Positions 10,011 through 48,601 are shown, numbered from the stretch's first letter. The stretch is DNA of 64,000 bases from Lama glama (GCA_028534125.1 CM052816.1:62994001-63058000); one strand, 5' to 3'. The notes: a model not told the origin generated them from the letters alone. Translations and numbers: made by a program.

Positions 10011-12324
10011 CATGCTCACCTGAGAGCCTATTAGCCCCAGTCCTCATTCTCTTTCTCATCAATAACCACACCATCCTTCTCTGATGAACTTTCCAAATTA
10101 TGGTGTGTATTATTATTTATACCTTATCCTTACAGTATAGTATGCCATCTGTTATTAATTGAGAGCTCCTTGAGATTGAATCTTTGTCTCAAATATCTTT
10201 ATACCCTCATAGTATTTTCACATGTTTTTGGAATAAATTAATGTATAAATGAATACACAACTGAATGAGTAACAACAAAAAGAAACTGGCCCTCTGTAGC
10301 TGGGGAAATTAATGAACGAGAACTGAGCTTGCTCTGATACCAGGGATGATGAACAATTTCACATCAATCTAGTGTCCACAATAAGAACACAGGTATAGAC
10401 TTCTGAAGTTACTTTTTAAAATAGATTAAGTGTTTTATGGGTATTTTGAGGCCTTGGTGCACTGGATAGTATTTTTCCTTCCTTCATTGGGGTAGCTTGT
10501 CCCTGAAATAGAGATTACTCGGTACATTTCTTCCTGTACACTGGGGTCATCTAAACTGAGAGAGAAAAACCAAGCACTAGGCTAGTATCAAACATAGTTA
10601 AACTGCTTACTTCAAGTTTTCTTTTTGAAAAGTTTTATTTCTACTATTGTAATATTGAGCCTAGGGTCACTAACAGTATTTGTTTTCCTATTTTCTGGGC
10701 AATGAACCCCAACAGATCACTGAGATGTAAGAAACAGAAGACTAAAGCATAAATAAACCTTTAGAAGAGCTAAGAGGAAAAAATCCTGTCTTTTAATATG
10801 GGAATAAGAAAATAGAAATGGCTGTTTAATTCTGACTGTTGGAAGCATTTGAGTTGGTAGACACAATTTGCTGTCCTTCTTTAATATATTTTTTTCAAAT
10901 CTGCAATGATTTTTTTGTAAATTTAAAGAAATGGCCCTTATATATACTTTATGTAATGATTGGAAACCTTTATTTTTGGAAATGAGAGATTTTAGCCTTA
11001 ATTTTATATATATAACCTTAATTGTATATTTATTTTTTAGGAGAAAAATTGTCTTAACTTGCATCAATGATAATTACCATTTTCTCTCTGCTGTGAAAAA
11101 GTAGCAATAGGCTTTTTATACTTTTAAGGATATTTTTGGTTTAGAAACCATTGTTTGAACAGTGAAAAAAGCTGATGGAATCTACTTATGAAGCACAAAC
11201 AGAAAATACTAAATTGCTAATGAGTGAGGGGGTGTTAGCAAATGTGATGCTACAGACAAAAACCTTCTGTGGGATTTTTTGGGATATGTTTTAGGGGTAC
11301 TTAGTTCATTGCTATGGAAGTGAATAACATGCACCAAAAACTCAATAGTAGGGAAATAAGGATCAAGCCTTAGGGCATTTGTAGAAATACATTTCTTGTG
11401 CTTGTAAATTTAAACATTTCCATTGGAGAAAAGCAGTAACTAGCCAATCCAAAGATTAATTTTACACAGAATAGCAAACAGTGATGACAACAGAAAAAAT
11501 GCAAGAACAAGAATTTTAATGTTTTCGTAATTTCTCTTAAAAATTCAGTGTCCCAAACCACAGGACACCTTAGCTACAATTCAGAAACTATTGGATGTGG
11601 TTGTAGTTCTTTCAGGCAAGGGTAACTTGGTGTATCAACTGATACTCTCAGGGCCTACATGAGTTTTAGTGAACTATCTACAGGAGAAATAATAAAAACG
11701 TTGTGTTACTGAGCTTGATCCATTTCCCAAGTGGCATACAGGACAGCTAGAGCAAAGTGGCAATAATTCAAAGGCCAGAGGCTTCTGGGAGCCTCCGTTG
11801 AGGAAAAAATACACTCTGCTGGTTAAATTTCTAGCATTTTATCTTCTTTTTCACTAAAAATGCAATAGTCTTAGCAATTTCTGAAATCACATTAATATGC
11901 TAGTTTCAGAACTTGAACGCAATGAAGAAATTTCAGGGAGGAAAAGAAAAAAAAAAACTCTTTTTCCTGAAGCACCAATGTAGGCATATTAATGGATATG
12001 AATTTGATTTTTGGAAATAATGTCCTAAAATATGTACTTTGGAATCATTAACTGAGATTATCCCTGGGAATAAGTTTCTTTCGAAGAATATAAAGTGTTT
12101 TTTCCCAAAATCTACAACATTTCAATTTGTTAAGGAGTAAAGTTTTTAGCAGAAGTGTGAAAAATTAGAAGGCAAAGCATTTGATGGTTACTTACTTGGC
12201 AAGATCTGGCCAGCAAAAAAAAAATATGCTAAGCAAAAAATCAATGGTAATTACAGATTCTTCACCTCCTTAATTAGGAAATGGGGAAAGTATCATACTC
12301 TCCTGCTCTTAGATCATCACTATT

Positions 12325-13308
12325 TGTGATAGTTTGCAAAATATGGATGCAATTACTCCCCAACTTGTATCTACACCCCTTGCAGTGTGATTTTGCAGAT
12401 CGTTTCATCAAAAGGTTAATTTTCCTAGCACTTGAGCTGCCTTGTGACTTGCCCTCGCTAGTTGTGGCAAAATTGTTATGTATCCATCCTAAGCCTAGGC
12501 CGTAAGACGCCTATACATTTCTGTATCCTCTCTTGGAACTCTGGCCAGCTGCTGTGTGAAAAACTAGGGCTACTCCCCTAAGACGATGAGCGATGTGAGC
12601 ATCTGTCACCTGGATTTCCCTGGTTTGGCAGCTAGCCGGCCACCAGAAATGTAAGTAAGAACATGCTAGACCAACCAGCCAACCTGCCAGCAAAACACAG
12701 ACACCCAATGCCATTCACAGCAACATGGATAGACCTGTTGGACATCATTCTAAGTGAAGTGAACCAGAAAGAAGAAAAATACCACATGATATATCACTCA
12801 TGTGTGGAATCTAAGAAAAATGAAGACACTAACAAACTTATCTGCAAAATAGAAACAGACTCACAGACATAGTAAACAAACTTACGGTTACTGGCGGGAA
12901 AGGTGGGGGGAAGGGATAAATTGGGAGTTCAAGATTTGCAGATACTAACTAGTATATATAAAATAGATAAAAAGCAAGTTTCTTCTGTATAGCACAGGCA
13001 ACTGTATTCAACATCTTGTACCTATACAAAAAAAGAATATGAAAATGAATATATGTATGTATGTATGACTAAAACATGATGCCGTTCACCAGAAATAACT
13101 GACACACTGTAAACTGACTATACTTAAATAAAAAGAAAAAGAAAAAACATAGATACACAAGCAAACCCAGCAGAGACCTGCTGATCTAGCTCTAATAGGT
13201 GAGCAGATCTATCCAGCCAACCTTCACTTGTGAGCCGGACTAAATGGTTATACTCAAAGCCACGCAGTTTGGGACTGCTTTGTTATATTGTAAAAGAAAA
13301 CTCATGTA
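12325..13308 (+). mobile_element. MLT1H/G-like MaLR solo LTR, split by an L1
   Basis: Begins 'tgtgatagtttgcaaaatatgg...ccccttgcagtgtgattttgcag'; ends 'aagccacgcagtttggg...ttgttat'. Confidence 0.7.
12706..13143 (+). mobile_element. Young (camelid-type) L1 3' end
   Basis: Encodes the ORF2 C-terminal MPFTATWIDLLDIILSEVNQKEE, then 3'UTR and A-tail. TSD AAAACACAGACAC (12692-12704) / AAAACATAGATAC (13144-13156). Confidence 0.9.
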
Positions 13309-13544
13309 CCATTTGAAAACTTTATTCATCTTATGATTTAATTTTTCTAATCTAATTAGCTCCCATTTAGGATCTAACTGAATAAAATTAAGAGAAAGAA
13401 CATAAATGTTTTCATTGGAATCAAACTGCTCATTCACTCTGAACATAGTTTCAAGGTTATCTTGCTACACGGCTGAGTGAAAATTGTTACTAGAAGACCA
13501 GTCGAGAGCTTTCTCTAGCTCTGAATACGTGTATGAACTGGGTA

Positions 13545-13750
13545 GGAGAGAGAACACGCCAGGGTAGGAGACCTTGTCCCTGTAGCGCCTTCCTGCCCTT
13601 TCTAGAGACCGGTGGGGCAGGGGAAAGGAAAGGATTACATTCCAAAGCTTCTGCCTGTTTTCTGTGCTGCTAAATCGAGATCCAAAAAAACCTCTTTTAG
13701 AGCCATGCTTTGCCAGACAACGGAAAACAGGCAGGATCAGCACAAGGAAG
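13545..13750 (+). repeat. Diverged direct repeat, copy 1 (partner ~15822-16040)
   Basis: TTCTAGAGAC[C/T]GGTGGGGC is 18/19 identical at 13600-13618 vs 15880-15898. Collinear ACCTT, TCCAAA and TGTGCTGCTA blocks lie at a ~2280-bp offset. Confidence 0.75.
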
Positions 13751-13780
13751 TAACAGGGGTCGGGGCTTCGTCAGATGCCC

Positions 13781-14295
13781 CAATGGGCTTCAGGACTGCT
13801 ACCCCAAAACACGGCACCGTGGTATGTTGAGTATTTTAAGCTGAAAGAGTCTGAGCAACAGCAGGTGAATGAAGGTCACTCTGGTCTTCACCTCCTCCTT
13901 TCCCCACTAAGCAGATCATAAGACTCTTCTATGAAGGGTGTCCTCCCCACACCCAGAGGAGAGCAGCAGCCTTGTCTCTGAAGATAGAGGGACCCTGAAA
14001 AGCATTCAAACCAGCAGGCCTTGCCAGATTTCCCCCAGTTCACGACACTCACCTCCTACTCTGCCCTAACCATATTTCCTTCTCCATGACTCTACATTCT
14101 GCATCAATCTAGCATAAAAATACTCAGATTTAACCATTTCTTCACATCTTCATTTTCTTAAGGTGGCTCCCATGTCACGTAAAATTAATATTTCACAAAT
14201 ATACGTGCTATTCTCCTGTCACTGTCTCTGTTAGATTGATTTTCAGACCCAGCCAGGGACTGTAAGAGAGTTAAGAAAATTTTTCCTCCCCTATA
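13781..14295 (+). mobile_element. ERV1-class solo LTR (MER39/MER34-group-like)
   Basis: Starts 'ttcaggactgctaccccaaaacacggcaccgtggtatgttgagtattttaagctgaa'; ends 'ttttcctccccta'. Confidence 0.75.
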
Positions 14296-15821
14296 ATTCC
14301 TTTACAAAGAAATTCACTTAATGTTCAGTACCAGTATCTGTCAGAGAAGTGGATGTTCAAGGTGAACTTGTTCACAATAGATGGAAGAATCATATAAACC
14401 AGGGGATCAGAGGAAAAAATTTTAGAGAAGGCTCCAAGTTCAAGTTACTTTGGCAACCCCAGGAGTTTGTGCCTTCTAAAAGATAAGGCACTGTTCAAAT
14501 ATAATATTATTCTCAGTTTACGTGGAAACTAAGGCTCAGAGCAGTGAAGCAACCCTCTAAAAGGTCTTATAAATTTCAAGCACTACAGTCTAACAACAAT
14601 CTCATACTTCAAAACAAGGTTTCTAAGAAAACAGACCTTCAAAATTAGTTTAGAGTATCTTCTTTGCCAGCCTAATAATCCTTGGGTATGATCTAAAGTC
14701 CCTTCTTAAAGAATGGAAAGATGTGGCTGTGATTTTTTTCCCTATTTTGCATTGAAAAATATATGTAATTGGCATCCTTGTTACATAGATCTTTCCAAAA
14801 ATTGAAATCAAATCATCCTTAATTTCTCTGAGATGAGTAACAGAAGGTACAGCTGAGACCCTGTCAATATGCAGGCTCCACCAGCGTGAGTCATGCTGTC
14901 TCTCAAACCTGTGGCTTATATTTTGCATAATTCTGCATAGAATGTGTTTGTTGCCTCTCATATTCAATTAGTAAGTCCTTAAGTTGTAAAGTAAATCACA
15001 CCCTGAAGTAAAAATGGAAGAGCAGTAGCTATGAGTCTTTGCTATTGGATTAACATCAGCCCTTTAAGTTTTGTTTGGACTTAGCTTATTTTACCATGAT
15101 TTAAAAAAATAAAACATCATTTTCTTGACAAGAGATTGACAAGTAAAAACTGGATAGGCTCAATTTTCCTGGAAAATGGACATCTTACTAAATGTGTGTG
15201 CCATGCTGCCACAGAATTACAGTTAGAAAACAAGTGTATTTCCTTGAGAATTGAAATTATATTGTTTGCTAAATGCTGCTAAACAGCACCAAGTTGTTTG
15301 TTAATACTATTCTAGCTGGTGGAAACCAGGAAAGTGACAGAAATTAACTTCTGATAAAGATAACACTGAAGTTCCGACCTCGTTGGTGTTTCTCCTATTT
15401 CCAAGGAGTTTGTAAGGAGACGTTCACTGAGCATCTTCTTTATTCAAGGAGCTGTGCTAGGGACACAGGGGCAATAAGACAACTCCTCAAGAACCTCCAA
15501 ACCTTAGACAGATGTACAGGTAACAGCCAGATGAGACAGAATGTTTAAAGTACCACTGGAGAGGGAAAGAGAAAGAGTTCCAAGGAAAACTCTTTACTGC
15601 TGGACGACTTAGTTCCTTCTCTGCGCTGCCTGTTGACACAATGTGCTTTGCTACCTCAGGGATGTTTTTTAAGTTGATACCAAAAACACATTGATAAAAC
15701 TCTGAAATTTGTAACTTCCATCTGAAAAGAGGGTGTCTCCAAAGGGAATTACATTCCAGGAATTCACTTCAAAATAAACTACAAAACCCTGGTGAAGAGG
15801 GTGGAAATTTCACAGCAGCGG

Positions 15822-16040
15822 AAGAGGTAAATAATGCCTAAGTAGAGGACACCTTAGCTCTGCATTGGCCTCCTTCCTCTTCTAGAGACTGGTGGGGCCG
15901 GGTAAAAATAGGGAATGAAATCCAAACTTCTGTCTACTCTGTGTGCTGCTACAAGTTGAAAAGTTGAAATAGTAAAGAACTTTTTGTATAGTCATTCTCT
16001 ACAAGACTGTGGCAACCAAGTGTGATTAGAACAAAGAAAG
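15822..16040 (+). repeat. Diverged direct repeat, copy 2
   Basis: See copy 1; similarity ends where the L1 5' region starts at ~16040. Confidence 0.75.
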
Positions 16041-17501
16041 GAGCTTGGCAAATCCTTTCTCCCAAAAGCAACAATAAAGTTTGACAAAATTGTCACAACC
16101 ATTTCAAGACCCTGGAAATCAACTAAAGCCTTGGGGAAAATAGAAGAGCTCTATTCAAAGAAAGAACTACTAAACCTCTGGCAAAAAACAGTGACAGTCT
16201 ATATATAGCCTTCCTGCCTGAAGCTTCTCTGATAACCCTGTCCTAGGTTGGTGACTGCAATAGGTGAATAACGGCAGGGCAAGCCACGAGAACCAGCAGC
16301 TTCACCGCCAGGAGGGGTTCACTAGGTTTGGAGCAGAAAGTAGAAAAACTCCACACACAGGCACATGGTCATAAGCAGCAGCAATTTCAGTAATAGACAG
16401 GGAAAGTCAATGGAACGGCTAACCCGAGGTTGCAGCCCTGGTTGAGGCAAACAATGGAATGACAGGGTAGTCAGATTCAACAGGGAGGTCTAAGGGATGG
16501 GATAGATACAGGGATCCTTGATAAGTATCCACACATCCCTGGACGTCTGGAAGGCTTTGCTCATGTGCAAGGCTGTATGCATGCAAAGTAGAGGCCAGAG
16601 AGGACCCTAGCCATCTACCTACCCTGTCTGAACCCAATGTCATGTGCACATGCAAACAAAGTACAAAAGGACTCAATGGAAAACAAAAGCCTGGGATTTG
16701 AATCCATTCTCTAACTCACATGCAGAATCCATGCAGGGTTGGGAAGTGGTAATGTCTCGAGGTGTTTAAGTACAACCTCTGTTGAACCATTGGCTGAATG
16801 ATGGTAACACAGGAGAGACCACTGGGAAGCTAGGTTTTATGGCAGAAAAATAAACTTTTTTTGAGCAGAGACATTAACAGATGCATACTGAGGGTGAAAC
16901 AGACTATACAGATCGAGTCCAAGCAAGTAAATAAAAAATTTAAATAGAATCCCAAAGTGCTATATTATCAAAAACATTCAGTTTTTCAATCAGAATTATG
17001 AGAGATATGCAAATAAAATGAAAATGTGGATACAAATGTTGGACTTAGCAGATGAAGACTTTAAGGTAACTATTATTATATTCAAAGAATTAAGGAAACC
17101 ATGTATAAAAACTTCTTAACAGCTTTACTGAGATATAGTGTACATCCAATGTAATTCACTCATTTAACATGTACAATTCAGTGAGTTTTAATAGATGATT
17201 TACAAATCTGTGTGACCATCACCACAGTCATTTTTTAAACATTTTGATTACCTCAAAAAGAAATGTTGTATCATTTAGGTATCGCCCCTCATTCCCTATT
17301 CCACTCTCCAGTCCCAAGAAATGACTCACCTACTTTCCGTATCTATAGATTTGCATATTCTGGATATTTCATTTAAATGGAATCCTAATTTTTTTATTTT
17401 AAACAACTGACTTTTACACTTGGCATAGTTTTTTCAAGGTTCATTCATATTTAATTTAGGGGAAAGCATCCATGTTGTTCCACTTATCTCTTAATCCCTT
17501 T

Positions 17502-19205
17502 TTTAAAAAATTTTATTTCATTGAAGTATAGTTGATTTACAATGTTATTTGTTTCTGGTGTACAGCAGAGTGATTCATTCAGCAATACGTATACATATAT
17601 TCATATTCTGTTCTATTATAGGTTACCACAAGATACTGAATATAGTTCCCTATGCTATATACTGCAAACTTTTAGTTTATCTATTTTATATATAGTAGTT
17701 TGTATCTGCTAATTCAAATTCCTAATTTATCCCCTCCCCTTGCCACTTTCCTCCTTGGTAACCATAAGTTGTTTTTTCTTTCCATGTCTGTGAATCTGTT
17801 CCTGTTTTATAAATAAGTTCATTTGTATCATACTTGAGATTCCACATATAAGTGATATCATGGATATTTGTCTTTGACTTATTTAACTTAGTATGAAAAT
17901 CTCTAGATCCACCCATGTTGTGGCAAATGGCATTATTTCATTCTTTTTTATGACTGAGTCATATTCCATTTTGTGTGTGTGTGTGTGTGTATACATATAT
18001 ATATATATATGTATATGTGTACCACATCTTCTTTATCCATTCAGATGTCAATGTCCATTCATCTTCTTTATCCATTCAAATGTCATATGTCATTCAGGTT
18101 GCTTCCATGTCTTGACTATTGTAAATAGTGCTGCTATGAAATTGGGGTGTGTGTATCTTTTTGAATTAGTTTTCTCTGGATATATGCCCAGGAGTGGGAT
18201 TTCTGGGTCATATGGTAAGTCTATTTTTCATTTTTAAAGGAACCTCCATACTGTTTTCCATAGTGACTGCACCAATTTACTTTCCCACCAACAGTATAGG
18301 AGGGTTCCCTTTTCTCCACACCCTCTCCATAATTTATCATTTGTAGACATTTTAATAATGATCATTCTGACCAGTGTGAGGTGATACCTCATTGTAGTTT
18401 TGATCTACACTTCTCTAATAATTAGCAATGTTGAGCATCTTTTCATGTGCCTATTGGCCATCTGTATGTTTTATTTGGAGAAATGTCTATGTAAGTCTTC
18501 TGCCCATTTTTAAATTGGGTTTATTTGTTTTGTTATTGAGTTGTATGAGCTGTTTGTATATTTTGGAAATTAAGCCCTTACTGGTAACATCATTTGCAAA
18601 TGTTTTTCCCCAGTCTGTAGGTTTTCATTTTGCTTACGGTTTCCTTTGCTGTGCAAAAGCTTATAAGTGTAATTAGGTCCTACTTGTTTATTTTTGCTTT
18701 TGTTTCTATTGCCTTGGGAGAATGACCTAAGAAAATATTGCTGCCATTTATGTCAGAATTTTTGCCTATGTTCTCTTCTAGGAGTTTTATGGTGTCATGT
18801 CTTATATTTAAGTCTTTAAGTCATTTTGAGTTTATTTTTATGTATGGTGTGAAGGTGTGTTCTGATTTCACGTCTGCATGCAGCTGTCCAGTTTTCCCAA
18901 CACCTTTTGCTGAAGAGACTTGTCTTTTCTCAATTGTATATTCTTGCCTACTTTATCGAAGATTAATTGACTATAAATGTGTGGGTTTATTTCTGGGCTC
19001 TCTATTTTGTTCCATTGATCCATATGTCTGATTTTGTGCCAATACCACCCTGTTTTGACACTGTAGCTTTGTAGTGTTGTCTCAAATCTGGGAGAGTTAT
19101 GCCTCCAACTTTGCATCCAATAACCCATGACATTTTTCACAAAAATAGAATAATCCTAAAGTTTATGTGGAACCATAAAAGACCCAGAATTGCCAAAGCA
19201 ATCTT
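17502..19205 (-). mobile_element. Young L1 with 5' inversion (twin-priming structure)
   Basis: Antisense 3'UTR plus ORF2 to 19113 (e.g. HMDQWNKIESPEINPHIYSQLIFDK), then a sense-oriented piece at 19114-19205 encoding ...KFMWNHKRPRIAKAI. TSD-like CTTAATCCCTTT / CTTCATTCCTTT. Confidence 0.85.
17972..18020. repeat. (TG)n(TA)n compound microsatellite within L1
   Basis: Directly visible. Confidence 0.95.
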
Positions 19206-22051: not shown

Positions 22052-23595
22052 AATGAAGCTGGAGGAATAACCCTCCCAGATGTCAGACAACACTGCACAG
22101 CTACAGCCATCACAACATGGCATTGGTACAAAAGCAGACGTGTGGATCAATGGAACAGAACAGAGAGCCCAGAAATGAACCCACAGACTTTTGGTCAATT
22201 AATCTTTGACAAAGGAGGCAAGAACACAATGGAGTATAAAGACAGTCTCTTCAGCAAATGGTGTTGGGATAACTGGACAGCTGCATGTAAATCAGTGAAG
22301 TCAGAACACTCCCTTCACACCACACACAAAAATAAACTCAAAATGGCTTCAAGACTTAAACATAAGACAAGACACTATAAACCTCCTAAACGAAAACATA
22401 GGCAAAACATTCTCTGACATAAATCTCAGCACTGTGTTCTCCTAGGGTAGTCTACCCAGGCTATATAAATAGAAGCTAAAATAAACAAATGGGACCTAAT
22501 TAAACTTACAAGCATTTGCACAGCAGAGGAAACCATAAGCAAAACAAAAAGACCACCTACAGAATGGGAAAAAATATTTGCAAAAGATGAGACTGACAAG
22601 GGTTTAATTTCCAAAATGTATAAACAGCTCATACAACTTAATAATAAAAAAACAACACAATCCAAAAATGGGCAGAAGACCTAAACAAGCAATTCTCCAA
22701 TGAATACATACAAATGGCCAATAGGCACATGAAAAAATGCTCAGTATTGCTAATTATCAGAGAAATGCAAATCAAAACTACAATGAGATATCACCTCACA
22801 CCAGTCATAATGGCCATCATCAAAAACTCCACAAACTATAAATGCTGGAGAGGCTGTGGAGAAAAGAGAACCCTCCCACACTGTTGGTGGGAATGTAGTT
22901 TGGTACAGCCATCATAGAAAACAGTATGGAGATTACTCAAAAGACTAAAACCAGACTTACCATATGACCCAGCAATCTCATTCCTGGGCATATATCCAGA
23001 GAGAACCTTAATTCAAAATAATACATGCACCCCAATGTTCATAGCAGCACTATATACAATAGCCAAGACATGGAAACAACCTAAATGTCCATCGACAGAT
23101 GACTGGATAAAGAAGTTGTGGTATGTTTATACAATGGGATACTACTCAGCCACAAAAAAAATAAAGCCATTTGCAGCAATATGGATGGATCTGGAGATTG
23201 TCTTTCTAAGTGAAGTAAGTCAGAAAAAGAAAAATACGAATTTACACCACTTATATGTGGAATCTCAAAAAAAAAAAAAGACAAACATATTTACAAAACA
23301 GAAACAGACTCACAGACATAGAAAACAAACTTATGGTTACTTCTGGGGGAAGGGGATGGGAAGGGATGAATTGGGAATTCAAGATTTGCAGATACTAATA
23401 TATACAAAATAGATAAACAACAAGTTAATACTATATAGCACAGGGAACTATGTTCAATATCTTGTAGTAACATGCTGAGAAAGAAAATGAAAATGAATAT
23501 ATGTATGTTCATGTATGATTGAAGCATTATGCTATACACTAGAAATTGACACAAACTGACTATACTTCAATAAGTAAATATATATATATATATAT
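22052..23595 (+). mobile_element. Young (camelid-type) L1, 3' 1.5 kb (ORF2 C-terminus + 3'UTR), disrupted
   Basis: Frame-shifted ORF2 peptides [44 protein letters not shown] (CCHC region) and MFIAALYTIAKTWKQPKCPSTDDWIKK. TSD AAATCAAGG(G)AAACCA at 22036-22051 / 23596-23610; (TA)n tail. Confidence 0.95.
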
Positions 23596-38820: not shown

Positions 38821-39320
38821 NNNNNNNNNNNNNNNNNNNNNNNNNNNNNNNNNNNNNNNNNNNNNNNNNNNNNNNNNNNNNNNNNNNNNNNNNNNNNNNN
38901 NNNNNNNNNNNNNNNNNNNNNNNNNNNNNNNNNNNNNNNNNNNNNNNNNNNNNNNNNNNNNNNNNNNNNNNNNNNNNNNNNNNNNNNNNNNNNNNNNNNN
39001 NNNNNNNNNNNNNNNNNNNNNNNNNNNNNNNNNNNNNNNNNNNNNNNNNNNNNNNNNNNNNNNNNNNNNNNNNNNNNNNNNNNNNNNNNNNNNNNNNNNN
39101 NNNNNNNNNNNNNNNNNNNNNNNNNNNNNNNNNNNNNNNNNNNNNNNNNNNNNNNNNNNNNNNNNNNNNNNNNNNNNNNNNNNNNNNNNNNNNNNNNNNN
39201 NNNNNNNNNNNNNNNNNNNNNNNNNNNNNNNNNNNNNNNNNNNNNNNNNNNNNNNNNNNNNNNNNNNNNNNNNNNNNNNNNNNNNNNNNNNNNNNNNNNN
39301 NNNNNNNNNNNNNNNNNNNN
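38821..39320. other. Assembly gap (500 N)
   Basis: Run of N; the round length suggests a placeholder size. Confidence 1.
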
Positions 39321-43978: not shown

Positions 43979-44502
43979 TGAATTAAAAATATTGCCTGCC
44001 ATATCAGCAAAGAAAGGATGCTTCCACCATCAAGACCTCAGCCTCTACCGCTGACCCAACAGTGAGCCAGCTAGAACTGAGGATGGAGACAAGACAAGCA
44101 GGCAGCCCGGCCTCTGCCACCACCCCCACCGGTGCACCCTGAGGGAACTCAGGACGCGAAAGCACAGGATACTGGCCCTAGACAGCCCGGTGCACAACAA
44201 AGGAACGATTTCAATGAGCCTAGACTTTTGCACCTTCCCATACAAAAACAAAAACAAAAACAAAAGCATTAAATTCCTTAAATTGAGATATCTGGTTTTC
44301 TCTAACAGCAATATTTTAATGTTCTTACCACCTGGTTTTTGTTGCAAAAACTCCTATATATCCTGGCTCTCCCCCTGGCCCTTTGGAGCAGCCCCTCAGA
44401 GCTAGCTGAGAGGCTGGATGTTGGCCTTAAATCCTTAGAAGTGTCTGCTTAATAAAACGTAACTCCCAACTTTTAGGTTGTGCATTTTTTTTTCAGTCAA
44501 CA
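43979..44502 (+). mobile_element. ERV1-class solo LTR (artiodactyl-type)
   Basis: TG...CA termini; 4-bp TSD CGTG/CATG (one CpG transition); TATATA at 44355; AATAAA at 44451; internal (AAAAAC)n. Confidence 0.85.
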
Positions 44503-44786
44503 CATGCAATAAAGATTACTCCACATTAATGCCCAAACAGAAACACTGAAGCAGGAATTTAACTGTAACAATTTTAAAGGCCCAAAACATTTAACAGAGC
44601 TTGGAAACCCAGTGGCTCCACTTCAGGAGATGAAATAGCCAAAAAATATTTCTCTGTGCAGTTTGCAGCTCTGATAAGACTATGAGGTAGACACTAATGG
44701 CCTTAAATGGCTGCAGAAGGAAGTACCTGAAGGTTCGGGGACCGTTCCTTGACTCTGGAAGGACACGCTACACAGCGGGCACTTAC

Positions 44787-44977
44787 ACAGTCACGACACG
44801 GGGGCCTACCTGTCTCTCACACAGTGTCGTCCCACGACTTCACGTCTGGTTGACAAACCCATCTTGGTCCACTTCCTGAGAAGAAAAAACAAAAACTACT
44901 GAGGTAGAAGTAACTTCCAGGTTTAGACAGGACTACAGCCAGTATAGTCATATGTTTATACAGATCCTCGTTAACAC
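44787..44977 (-). other. Candidate internal exon with alternative acceptors and donors
   Basis: Minus strand: branch point GCTAAC (45015-45020) and CCCCTGTCTTTTCTCTCCAG|G at 44977; second acceptor TTTTTGTTTTTTCTTCTCAG|G at 44875; donors CAG|GTAGGC (44810) and TGT|GTAAGT (44787). Confidence 0.45.
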
Positions 44978-45747
44978 CTGGAGAGAAAAGACAGGGGCGG
45001 CCCCAATTGTCAAGGTTAGCACTTGGAGGACAATTGCTGAGCAGGACGGGAACAGGCTGAATCCTGCCGCTCTGACAGTTTGCTGGAGGCATGAAAATGT
45101 CAATTCAAATGAAGGGGCAGACTCCACATTCCTTAAAATGACAAGTAAATTCAGGCACATAGTGAAAGATAGTATTGCTTGACATTCTCTAGTTTACAAA
45201 TACCTTAATAAGCTGTGGTAACAAAGAAGAAAACATAGCCTTTAAAAAAAACTTCACAAGGAGTAGCTGACAAATGGACAGTCACACATGAAAGAGATTG
45301 ACACACTTCTGAGTAAAAGATTATGTAGAAAATATTAAGATCTAAAAGATTTAAATATCCTGGTCACAAAGCATAATCTAATGTTCCTGTATTAAGTTCC
45401 TTTATCCAACAGTTAGAGTACACTCTCCATAAACATCTGTGAAATACATTTAAAAAACTGCCTAGCACAACTCAAAGCACAGGCCAACAAACAGCACAGG
45501 GCATTATCTTAGGACAACGTTCTTTGACCACAATGAAACAAAATGATAAATACCATAAAATATTAGAACCCCCAAAATATTTGTTTATGTTTAAAATCAT
45601 TCTTCTGTAAAATTCATAGATCAAAGAAGAAACTACAATGGAAATAAAACAGACCTCTGTGAGGGAAAGAGACAAAACACAAAATATAAAATGAAAAAGG
45701 GAAACTGGCTAGCAAGTAAAACAATTAAAAAATAATAAAAATATAGT

Positions 45748-46132
45748 TGTTAGAAGACACCCTTGGGAGTTTCGGGTAAAATCTGAAACTGGAGGGCAAG
45801 GAGAGACCAGAGGAAGAGGCGGACCGCTCCAAATTGGCAGGGGGCAGTTTTAATAAGCAAGGGAGCTAATTTACAGCGCTCATCTTGGGCGGCCATAGGA
45901 CAAGCAGACCTCCACACCTGCCCACCGCTATCTTAAGAATGTATACAGAGGTCCTAATCAGGTTCCATCACATATTCAGTTCAGATGGACTCAATAACCT
46001 TTACTCTCTCAAGGTTACGTCCTTGAAACCGGGTCCCACTGTGGAAACACTGGGCTGAATGTGTTTTCTTAGACGGGAGGGGGTGAGGAACCACCAATTG
46101 CCAGGGTCCAGCTCACATGACTTCCTCCAACA
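45748..46132 (-). mobile_element. ERVL-class solo LTR
   Basis: TGT...ACA termini; perfect 5-bp TSD ATAGT (45743-45747/46133-46137); ATTAAA on the minus strand at 45849-45854. Confidence 0.85.
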
Positions 46133-46363
46133 ATAGTCAGCTGGACTCTAATCAAGATGACGACCAAGATTAAACAGATAAATTACTCAAAAATTATTAA
46201 AAGCCAACACTGTTGCAAAAGAAACAGAAAACTTAAGTTTTAAAGGTATCAAAATAATAATTGAAACCCTCCCCAAAAAATGTTTGTAGGTGATTATTCT
46301 CAAATATTCAATGTCAAGTTTCCTAATGTAAGGTAAGCAACTACTGCTGTTTTCCTCAGCCTC

Positions 46364-46782
46364 TGTTGGGCTGAAACCCACAGGCCTCCGAGGCTTGTAG
46401 CTGCCCAGCCTCGAGACTGAAGAGCCTGAAACAGTGACCAAGACATCGACGGTTTACTGGACAGGGGAACCTTACCTGTCTGAAACAAAAGGTCCTGGAG
46501 TGACATCCCACTGTGCACGGCACCCCACAGGCAAGGCACTGCTGCAATGTTCCCGACTCGAGGGAGAACGAAGCTACCATTTATAGGAGGAACTGACGTC
46601 AGGTTGGCTCATCAGTTACCAGGGAAACCAGCAGCTGAGGCAGGGGGCAAGCACCTAGGCAGCCACTGATTAAGCCCCATGATTAGGAGGATTGGATAGT
46701 CATGTGAGTGAGGCAGGCACTGGTCAAGCAGGGGATGTACAGGGAGCACAACCACAGCCACCTTGAGTGGCCTGACCATACA
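46364..46782 (-). mobile_element. Solo LTR (family A, copy 1)
   Basis: Minus strand TGTATGGTCAGGCC...CAGCCCAACA; 5-bp TSD GCCTC/GCCTG; collinear with 47951-48338. Confidence 0.9.
46471..46695 (-). promoter_or_regulatory. Putative LTR promoter and first exon (CCAAT-CRE-TATA-splice donor)
   Basis: On the minus strand: CCAAT 46691-46695, TGACGTCA 46594-46601, TATAAA 46580-46585, donor CAG|GTAAGG at 46476/46475. Confidence 0.5.
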
Positions 46783-47400
46783 GCCTGAAAAGAAAAGTGC
46801 AGTCGGTGGCAGGGAGCATACAAACATATTTTGTAACAAACGTATGTCACAGGTAATTGCTTCTAACTGAAAATATTATTGACAATTTTCCATTTGGAGT
46901 TGACTTTATCTATGACCAGAAATATTTCCATAACAAGCTACAGACAGACTGGGGCAAATCTCCTTGAGTTTGGAAATAAATGTCCAACAATCTACATAAA
47001 AAATAAATTTTACACTGCAAAGGTAAAGATGTAATAAAACTGAGTTACAATTAATTGATATATACAATATGAAAACTAGCACACCAGTTGACTAGGTTTT
47101 ATGGATTGGCTGAGCACGCAGCACCCATTCAAGGCATTTCTCCTTTGGGGATAAAACACCCTGCACTCTGACCAGCTAACTTACAAATGGACTTCAGAAA
47201 AGACACCCAGTCGTCTTCAGATCAGTGAAGGCTCCCAGGTCTGCAGCCCCCAGTTCCCTAGGTTGATACACCTATGCCATTTTAATAACCCAGAACTGTT
47301 AAGAAGGAACCTAATTATTTTCTAAGAAATAGATCTGACTAAAGCAACAGATAGTCAACTACAATTGAAAAATAGGCCTCTCCTAAGCTACTCCTTAAAG

Positions 47401-47584
47401 CAAAGTGTGGTTCCCAAGCCAGTAACACCGACGTCAGCTCCCCCAGGAAGCTGTGATAAATGGAAGTTTCAGGGCTCCCCCCTAGATTTACTAAATCGGA
47501 AACTCTGGGGGCAGGGCACAGCAATCTGGGCTTTAACAAACCATCCAGGTGATTCTGACATACGCTCAAGTTTGCAAACCACTG
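47401..47584 (+). mobile_element. MER5A hAT-Charlie MITE
   Basis: 'caaagtgtggttccc...gaaactctgggggcagggcacagcaatctgggctttaacaaaccatccaggtgattctga...aagtttgcaaaccactg'. Confidence 0.85.
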
Positions 47585-47950
47585 GCCTGAAGGTCGACTC
47601 CAAGAAGCAGCTACTAAAGATGTCTGTAAAGCAGATTTGTCAAACAATGTTGTTTTCTACAGTGTGCCTGAATTTACCTGTCATTTCAAGGAGTAGCCTG
47701 CACCCTGATTTGAGTTATACTTTTCATGCCTCCAGCAAACTGTCAGACTGACAGCACACAGCCCGCTGAGGCTCCTGTCATGCTCGGCAGTACCTCCAAA
47801 TGCTGATACCCTAGCAAGTCAGGATGCCCTGCTCTCCTTCTGCAGACATTAAAACAACAAATGCCCAAGCCCCACTGCCAGCAATTCTGATTTAAAAGAT
47901 CTGAAATAAGGTCTTGGTGTCAGTATTTTTAACCTCCCCCCACAGCACGC

Positions 47951-48338
47951 CACATGGTCAGGCCATTCAAGATGGCTGGTTCTCTTGCTCTTTGTACATC
48001 CCCTGCCTCACTCATGGCTATCTAATCATCTTAATTATAAGGCTTAATTAGTAACTGCCCACTGCTTGCCCCTTCCCCGCTCTCTGGTTTCCCTGGTAAC
48101 TGATGAGCCAACCTGACTTCAGCTTCCCCTATAAATGGTAGCCTCCTTCTCCCGGAGAAAGGAAGGTGGCTGCCATGTCCTGTTTGCCTACTGCTGTACA
48201 CGGTGGGGTGTGGCGCCAGGACTCTTTGTTTTGGACATGTAAGATCCCTGGTCTACTAACCGCTGATGTCTCTGTTGCTGACTCCGCGCTCTTTCTTCGG
48301 TCTTGAAGCTGGGCAACCACAAGGCTTGCAGCTCAACA
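47951..48338 (+). mobile_element. Solo LTR (family A, copy 2), inserted in a MER5-like fragment
   Basis: (CA)CATGGTCAGGCCATTCAAGATGGC...GCTCAACA; TATAAA at 48130-48135; flanks CACGC/CGTGC, both derivable from CGCGC by CpG decay. Confidence 0.9.
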
Positions 48339-48456: not shown

Positions 48457-48601
48457 TTTTTTTAACATTTATTTTTTATTTAATTTTGGGGGGGAGATCA
48501 TTGGGTCTATTTATTTACTTTTTCTTAATGGAGGTACTGGGGATTGAACCCACACACTCTTAGTGCTTAGCATGCACTCTACCACTTGAGCTACACCCTC
48601 C
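48457..48601 (-). mobile_element. tRNA-derived camelid SINE (vic-1-like)
   Basis: Minus strand GGAGGGTGTAGCTCAAGTGGTAGAG (A box)...GGGTTCAATCCCCAGTACCTCC (B box), A-rich tail, TSD CTCCTAT at 48450-48456/48602-48608. Confidence 0.9.

Follow-up and report, generated by a model that had tools for sequence, protein, structure and literature searches.

Can a solo LTR in intergenic llama DNA supply the promoter and first exon of a spliced RNA, or does it stand beside a good exon by chance? The question arises from a first-pass annotation that had proposed an LTR-driven transcript spliced to a well-formed exon further along the same strand. We analyzed the whole 64-kb stretch of Lama glama DNA in which this locus lies (hereafter the window, with positions counted from its first nucleotide), which is AT-rich mammalian DNA packed with old repeats. 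Scripts covered the whole window, and reading by eye covered it outside 12001-17499. The motifs noted in the annotation are real and correctly placed, and, judging from the DNA sequence, we propose with moderate confidence that an ERV3/ERVL-type solo LTR in intergenic DNA may provide both the promoter and the first exon for a predicted spliced lncRNA, in the known plug-and-play manner of ERVL elements.

No coding gene was found in the window by a Pfam scan of 57 ORFs, drawn from the 181 stop-to-stop frames of at least 65 codons: 0 of the 57 scored above the cut-off, and a match to EMC1_C in 1 of the 57 frames was rejected at 18.4 bits against a cut-off of 27. The "alternative promoter" that had been suggested therefore has no host gene among the ORFs scanned, and an Rfam search of the window returned 0 matches. 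Among the repeats are two inverted LINE-1 3' fragments (17512-19111 and 22056-23578), which are 76% identical over 1.6 kb and have more LINE-1 pieces in between; four LTRs lie inside about 4.4 kb around the predicted exon.

The putative promoter resides in a single element:

46364-46782, minus strand: LTR-A, a 419-bp solo LTR with TGT...ACA ends and flanks CAGGC / GAGGC

The termini of LTR-A (TGT at 46782-46780 and ACA at 46366-46364) have the TG...CA form, and its flanks constitute a 5-bp target duplication in which 4 of 5 positions match, compared with 3 of 5 for a related copy, LTR-B. Target duplications are given as 5 bp for ERV3/ERVL, 4 bp for ERV1 and 6 bp for ERV2 elements (PMC6523648); by its ends and its 5-bp duplication, LTR-A looks like an ERV3/ERVL-type solo LTR. 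It has no internal retroviral region, as the duplication abuts both ends and no retroviral Pfam family appeared among the 57 ORFs scanned. That it belongs to an interspersed family is indicated by LTR-B, which is 72% identical and has different flanks. An exact 20-mer from the LTR core had 0 matches in metagenome and viral contigs, and a 16-mer matched at least 117 loci, with 2 of 117 alignments longer than 30 nt and none longer than 41 nt among the matches listed, which we took as chance.

The divergence between LTR-A and LTR-B (K2P 0.33) points to an old family. Neutral sites change at about 2e-9 per year, and at that rate the roughly 0.17 substitutions per site accumulated by each copy (if both belong to one subfamily) would make them older than the camelid radiation. 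The divergence of the two copies thus renders doubtful the earlier suggestion that the insertion is lineage-specific.

The promoter motifs of LTR-A are as follows:

46691-46695, minus strand: CCAAT box, 110 bp upstream of TATA, absent from LTR-B
46615-46628, minus strand: X-box-like site GTTTCCCTGGTAAC, 13 bp ahead of the CRE, with 2 mismatches when compared with an ideal inverted repeat
46594-46601, minus strand: full palindromic CRE TGACGTCA, a single copy in the window
46580-46585, minus strand: TATA box TATAAA, 8 bp after the CRE, common to LTR-B

The arrangement of CCAAT (at 46695), CRE (46601-46594) and, after an 8-bp gap, TATAAA (at 46585), all on the minus strand, is exactly that described in the first-pass annotation. 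The X-box-like site had been overlooked; it is identical in LTR-A and LTR-B and falls, together with the CRE and the TATA box, inside 50 bp. The ideal RFX X-box consists of inverted GTTGCC half-sites with a spacer of 0-3 nt (PMC2797782), and matches of equal quality (2 mismatches) occur 7 times in 63201 bases, compared with a mean of 4.0 in 30 shuffles. Such a match alone is common, and the site owes its weight to having been kept in both LTR copies. One further X-box-like palindrome with 2 mismatches, at 14444-14457, lies outside the LTRs and within the chance number. Directly upstream of the CRE, a 34-nt run containing the X-box-like site is identical between LTR-A and LTR-B, a run reproduced in 0.115% of 20000 column shuffles, and the block extending from this run to 9 nt past TATA is identical at 56 of 65 positions, compared with 223 of 311 in the remaining alignment (p 0.009 by Fisher test, for a block picked post hoc).

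According to PMC4498915, the round-spermatid stage has two sequence-specific master factors, RFX2 and CREM, whose target sets in mouse are nearly distinct. The earlier guess of a CREB/CREM-type spermatid promoter, based on the full CRE beside TATA, gains from the X-box-like site, which hints at activity in spermatocytes or spermatids, but loses from the near separation of RFX2 and CREM targets in mouse. The core may have been conserved by constraint acting when the LTR family was still mobile, and constraint dating from that phase would be no proof of use by the host. An inserted LTR brings a promoter, a start site and a poly(A) site, to which ERVL elements may add a donor and an AUG, with no acceptor, according to PMC5538554; because promoter, donor and poly(A) site arrive with the LTR at insertion, they are not evidence of exaptation or of present activity.

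Splice sites were scored on both strands with a crude matrix, and the rank counts given here include the site itself. The predicted first exon and the signal behind it (a slash marks the splice junction) are:

46476-46559, minus strand: predicted first exon of about 79-84 nt, its start placed by TATA spacing, ending at CAG/GTAAGG
46453-46458, minus strand: AGTAAA, placed as an LTR poly(A) signal would be, 17 nt beyond the donor GT

Candidate starts are the pyrimidine-purine steps at 46559 and 46554, about 26-31 nt after TATA; no match to the YYANWYY initiator was found. The donor CAG/GTAAGG after 46476 is confirmed 104 nt past the end of TATA (about 105 had been claimed) and, at 12.5 bits, is the second best in the window; AGTAAA (at 46458) was likewise found beyond the donor GT, where it had been placed. 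In position the donor fits the MaLR motif TGTAAGY, with LTR-A reading GGTAAGG and LTR-B TGTAAGA; neither has the full motif, and the LTR-B donor is closer than that of LTR-A to the TGTAAGY given for ERVL elements (PMC5538554). LTR-A combines intact promoter elements and an intact donor with an acceptor downstream on the same strand, the sequence layout of an LTR-initiated transcript.

The sister copy permits a comparison:

47951-48338, plus strand: LTR-B, a solo LTR 72% identical to LTR-A and back-to-back with it, flanks CACGC / CGTGC

LTR-B retains the X-box-like site and the TATA box, lacks CCAAT and carries an imperfect CRE, TGACTTCA, that is one base off, as well as the donor CAT/GTAAGA after 48238, without G before the donor. 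Both TGACTTCA and CAT/GTAAGA sit in the aligned columns, in agreement with the first-pass annotation, and, the comparison being between two copies only, gain in one is indistinguishable from loss in the other. The further assertion that only LTR-A has the full set is borne out by the missing CCAAT and the imperfect CRE of LTR-B, but overstated for its donor, which is weaker and not dead (7.35 bits, a score that 141 of 6684 GT sites equal or exceed). The best exon in the 2 kb downstream of the LTR-B donor scores 16.3 bits, and no strong exon is present there. LTR-A (46782) and LTR-B (47951) face in opposite, outward directions across a distance of 1.2 kb, an arrangement that could serve as a two-way germ-line promoter. 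A SINE lies at about 48460-48600, presumably of the camelid type that it resembles.

Downstream of LTR-A, the predicted second exon comprises these features:

44810-44977, minus strand: predicted second exon, long form, 168 nt, with acceptor 44977 and donor 44810
44810-44875, minus strand: predicted second exon, short form, 66 nt, with acceptor 44875
44781-44790, minus strand: weak second donor TGT/GTAAGT, after 44787

Acceptor 44977 ranks 1st in the window, acceptor 44875 ranks 3rd and donor 44810 ranks 21st; acceptor 44875 lies 102 nt downstream of 44977, which leaves the frame unchanged, and a branch-point motif, TGCTAAC, is found at 45021-45015. All the exon parts listed previously are thus present, with the reservation that donor 44787 is weak (548 sites score as high). 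Exon 44977-44810 scores 25.5 bits, more than any other exon in 60 two-kb tiles, and its score was reached in 0 of 300 shuffles of its own 2 kb (mean 17.4, maximum 24.4), values that overstate the surprise, given a crude matrix and a site picked for its good looks. Most of the top donors and acceptors in the window fall on the minus strand (donors 25628, 46476, 10020 and 34837), and further minus-strand exon candidates (40169-40084, 36912-36667, 36380-36159 and 26345-26181) score 20-21 bits, within the range of ordinary tiles.

The DNA around the exon had been called CpG-retaining and apparently unique. CpG retention is real, with 13 CpG in 44720-45070 (351 bp), in the top 0.6% of 351-bp windows, but it is modest: the o/e ratio is 0.57 over this interval and reaches 0.78 over just 131 bp, which does not make a CpG island by the limits of at least 200 bp, GC 0.5 and o/e 0.6. 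Uniqueness did not withstand comparison of the window with itself, as 45215-44978 recurs in inverted orientation at 47608-47845 with 72% identity. This copy and the other elements that bear on the predicted intron are:

44978-45215, minus strand: element X copy A, 238 nt, an old repeat or duplicate containing the branch-point motif, a pyrimidine tract and the AG
47608-47845, plus strand: element X copy B, sharing 72% identity with copy A and ending at acceptor 47846
45748-46132, minus strand: LTR-C, a second same-strand solo LTR in the predicted intron, with TG..CA ends and a perfect 5-bp duplication, ACTAT

The two copies of element X (nhmmer E about 1e-25) are inverted and 2.4 kb apart. Their similarity stops exactly at the AG in both, and acceptor 47846 of copy B is the second best on the plus strand. 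Acceptor 44977 hence came with a duplicated old element, and its strength needs no selection. The identity of the element X pair (72%) equals that of the LTR pair, yet their order is not a mirror image; a single inverted duplication of the whole block was rejected on this ground, and because the spacers and flanks score within the shuffle range. Inspected by eye, element X showed no terminal inverted repeat, duplication or purine tract that would mark it as a complete MITE or an internal part of an ERV. Two pieces that we take to be MER5-like (47410-47585 and about 47846-47945) flank copy B, and the first of them contains a half-CRE, TGACGT, near 47430.

LTR-C matches LTR-A weakly (E 0.17). 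It contains ATTAAA at 45854 and donor-like sites at 46117, 45926 and 45918 (8.0, 7.6 and 9.5 bits, respectively), with no match to TATA or CRE, and is a candidate for a competing poly(A) site or an alternative first exon. Together with this sense-strand ATTAAA, the intervening acceptors 45656 (12.9 bits) and 45788 (10.7 bits) are obstacles to the spliced reading, but neither acceptor has a donor of at least 6.5 bits within 250 nt. Just past the exon, at about 44501-43977, lies an LTR-like element with TG..CA ends by eye and a minus-strand ATTAAA at 44320, which we assume to be of the ungulate ERV1 LTR type.

These features suggest the following sequence of events. An RNA would be started near 46559-46554 by RFX and CREB/CREM factors, with spermatocytes or round spermatids as the most likely cells. 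U1 binding suppresses nearby poly(A) use, and U1 on the donor after 46476 would mask both the weak AGTAAA 17 nt on and the ATTAAA of LTR-C. The RNA would then be spliced from 46476 to 44977 or 44875 by exon definition, these acceptors presumably winning over 45788 and 45656 on account of the good donor that they alone possess within 250 nt, and would leave via donor 44810 or continue to a downstream poly(A) site. A 500-base assembly gap (38821-39320), 5.5 kb downstream of exon 44977-44810, could hide the next exon.

The strongest competing explanation, which we regard as possible if somewhat unlikely, is that the locus is silent: the LTR would be methylated or off in all tissues, and the good exon would be a chance neighbor whose acceptor derives from element X. 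A repeat-rich window with no coding gene found in it speaks for such a fossil, and most solo LTRs are not co-opted, the full 5' exon cases counted in mouse amounting to 842 (PMC5538554). The CpG content can be read either way, in that the o/e ratio of the whole of LTR-A (0.28, 9 CpG) is like that of LTR-B (0.32, 8 CpG), whereas all 9 CpG of LTR-A lie from the CRE downstream, between 46598 and 46390, where the ratio is 0.50. Similarly, copy B of element X also ends in a strong acceptor with no need for selection, but a silent fossil would leave to coincidence that LTR-A unites CCAAT, TATA, a donor of 12.5 bits and a full CRE whose CpG is intact, and that the best exon of the window stands 1.5 kb downstream on the right strand, while LTR-B has nothing above 16.3 bits.

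A read-index check of 44600-46850 with 221 sampled words gave 22 rows, 6 of them not indexed. Ten RNA or guessed-RNA rows (6 studies; 5 on record as RNA) contain only 0.05-0.11 of the words, 4 of these low-fraction rows, from a single study, bearing a reproductive-system label, and 6 rows from 2 studies contain 0.74-0.81. The fraction expected is 0.04-0.095 for the spliced forms, 0.073 for the unspliced 3' half of LTR-A and likewise for any fragment of similar size, so the low fractions fit the spliced forms or any such fragment and are no evidence of expression or tissue.

It is also conceivable, though in our judgment distinctly unlikely, that the exon is used without the LTR-A promoter, either as part of a longer minus-strand lncRNA that takes up the LTR as an internal exon via acceptors 46784 or 46634, or fed by the LTR-C donor 45918. 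Acceptor 46784, at the LTR edge, scores 11.2 bits, and among the exon candidates listed 46634-46476 comes second with 23.1 bits, but ERVL LTRs are described in PMC5538554 as having no acceptor. The best minus-strand donors (12.9, 12.5, 12.0 and 12.0 bits) exceed the plus-strand best of 11.2 bits, which favors this reading, yet in the interval from 48.5 to 64 kb no upstream promoter or CpG-rich block was seen, bar one 500-bp bin with 8 CpG. As for LTR-C, its donors are offset by its lack of a TATA or CRE match.

That the promoter fires and yields a short, unspliced RNA ending at AGTAAA (46458) or at the ATTAAA of LTR-C (45854) appears very unlikely. Both poly(A) signals are on the sense strand ahead of the exon, but AGTAAA is a weak variant located 17 nt behind a near-perfect donor, where suppression by U1 would be expected.

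With respect to coding potential, AUG 46506 in the LTR exon opens 63 codons via acceptor 44977 and 29 via 44875, both acceptors preserving its frame, which closes 7 nt before donor 44810 and overlaps the frame of AUG 44862. The latter, noted earlier as a Kozak-type start, is indeed present (A at -3, G at +4), but it is first in no predicted spliced form, the LTR AUG 46506 preceding it, and its frame, open for 17 codons to donor 44810, stops after 18 codons unless this donor is used. The 52-residue exon part of the upstream frame had no homologue among proteins of 28-91 or 92-2000 residues. A coding role, with AUG 44862 as alternative start of a downstream gene or the LTR AUG giving a 63-codon micropeptide, appears exceedingly improbable, since neither the good context of AUG 44862, nor an LTR-AUG frame kept by both acceptors, nor the 23 ORFs of ERV-driven testis lncRNAs with detectable peptides (PMC5494522) outweighs an upstream AUG that overlaps 44862 in every predicted form, a first frame that closes at 63 or 29 codons without a homologue and the 0 of 57 scanned ORFs above the Pfam cut-off. 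The product of an LTR-A-driven transcript would thus be a lncRNA, because its first AUG opens only this short frame, and, in all likelihood, LTR activity in the germ line yields it as a by-product rather than as a selected gene.

If transcribed, LTR-A would be the start of one more LTR-initiated lncRNA, a class with hundreds of members per genome, and alone would change little. If the X-box/CRE/TATA core is a family trait, it would amount to a testable sequence code for the firing of one LTR family in spermatids of a livestock lineage, and the active-looking LTR-A with the weaker LTR-B 1.2 kb away offers a natural side-by-side comparison. More speculatively, and with slim prospects in our estimation, an LTR family with a compact module of X-box, CRE, TATA, donor and AUG under constraint might have seeded spermatid promoters among camelids, and perhaps among even-toed ungulates more widely, joining two master factors that act on nearly separate genes in mouse; LTR-A would then be a host-kept copy giving a spliced testis RNA, possibly with a 63- or 29-codon peptide begun inside the LTR and switched by the two in-frame acceptors.

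An LTR-initiated spliced RNA is a common, known kind of event. Among the papers listed in literature searches, none was seen to describe this locus or an LTR family whose core joins an X-box, a CRE and TATA. ERVL LTRs serve as first exons in the mouse, human and bovine genomes, with 125 MLT first exons in the bovine genome (PMC5538554). LTR-A resembles the ERVL/MaLR solo LTRs of that work (MT, ORR1, MT2 and MLT) in its promoter, its internal donor just before the poly(A) signal, its LTR AUG and its predicted splicing to flanking DNA. It differs from them in that its donor reads G/GTAAGG instead of TGTAAGY (LTR-B has TGTAAGA) and that its core suggests male germ cells instead of oocytes. A promoter in an ERV pol region (PMC1079825) was set aside as a comparison. 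In RLTR10-initiated transcripts (PMC13408016), too, an LTR start is followed by splicing to downstream exons, as predicted for LTR-A, but RLTR10 mostly needs the internal region and takes its donor from within the LTR in only 23 of 536 cases, whereas LTR-A has its donor within a solo LTR, as in MaLR elements.

In mouse and rat, spermatocytes and round spermatids are the main sites of LTR-driven lncRNA transcription (PMC5494522), and LTR-A resembles these cases as an intergenic LTR that would be the sole promoter, sometimes with a short ORF; the species and LTR family are different, and RFX, CREM and the word "motif" are absent from the main text of that paper. The testis-specific alternative SRPK2 promoter furnished by MLT1F1 in pig, human and mouse (PMC10839656) likewise shows an old LTR serving as first exon in the testis of an even-toed ungulate, a use that we propose for LTR-A, but there the LTR is spliced to a coding gene through a demonstrated junction, whereas for LTR-A no host gene was found in the window. 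Finally, like the promoters controlled by RFX2 and CREM-tau during spermiogenesis (PMC2797782, PMC4498915), LTR-A has an X-box-like site near the putative start and a full CRE beside TATA; unlike the mouse RFX2 and CREM promoters, which form near-separate sets, it has both putative binding sites, the X-box-like one with its 2 mismatches and the CRE, 13 bp apart in a single LTR module.
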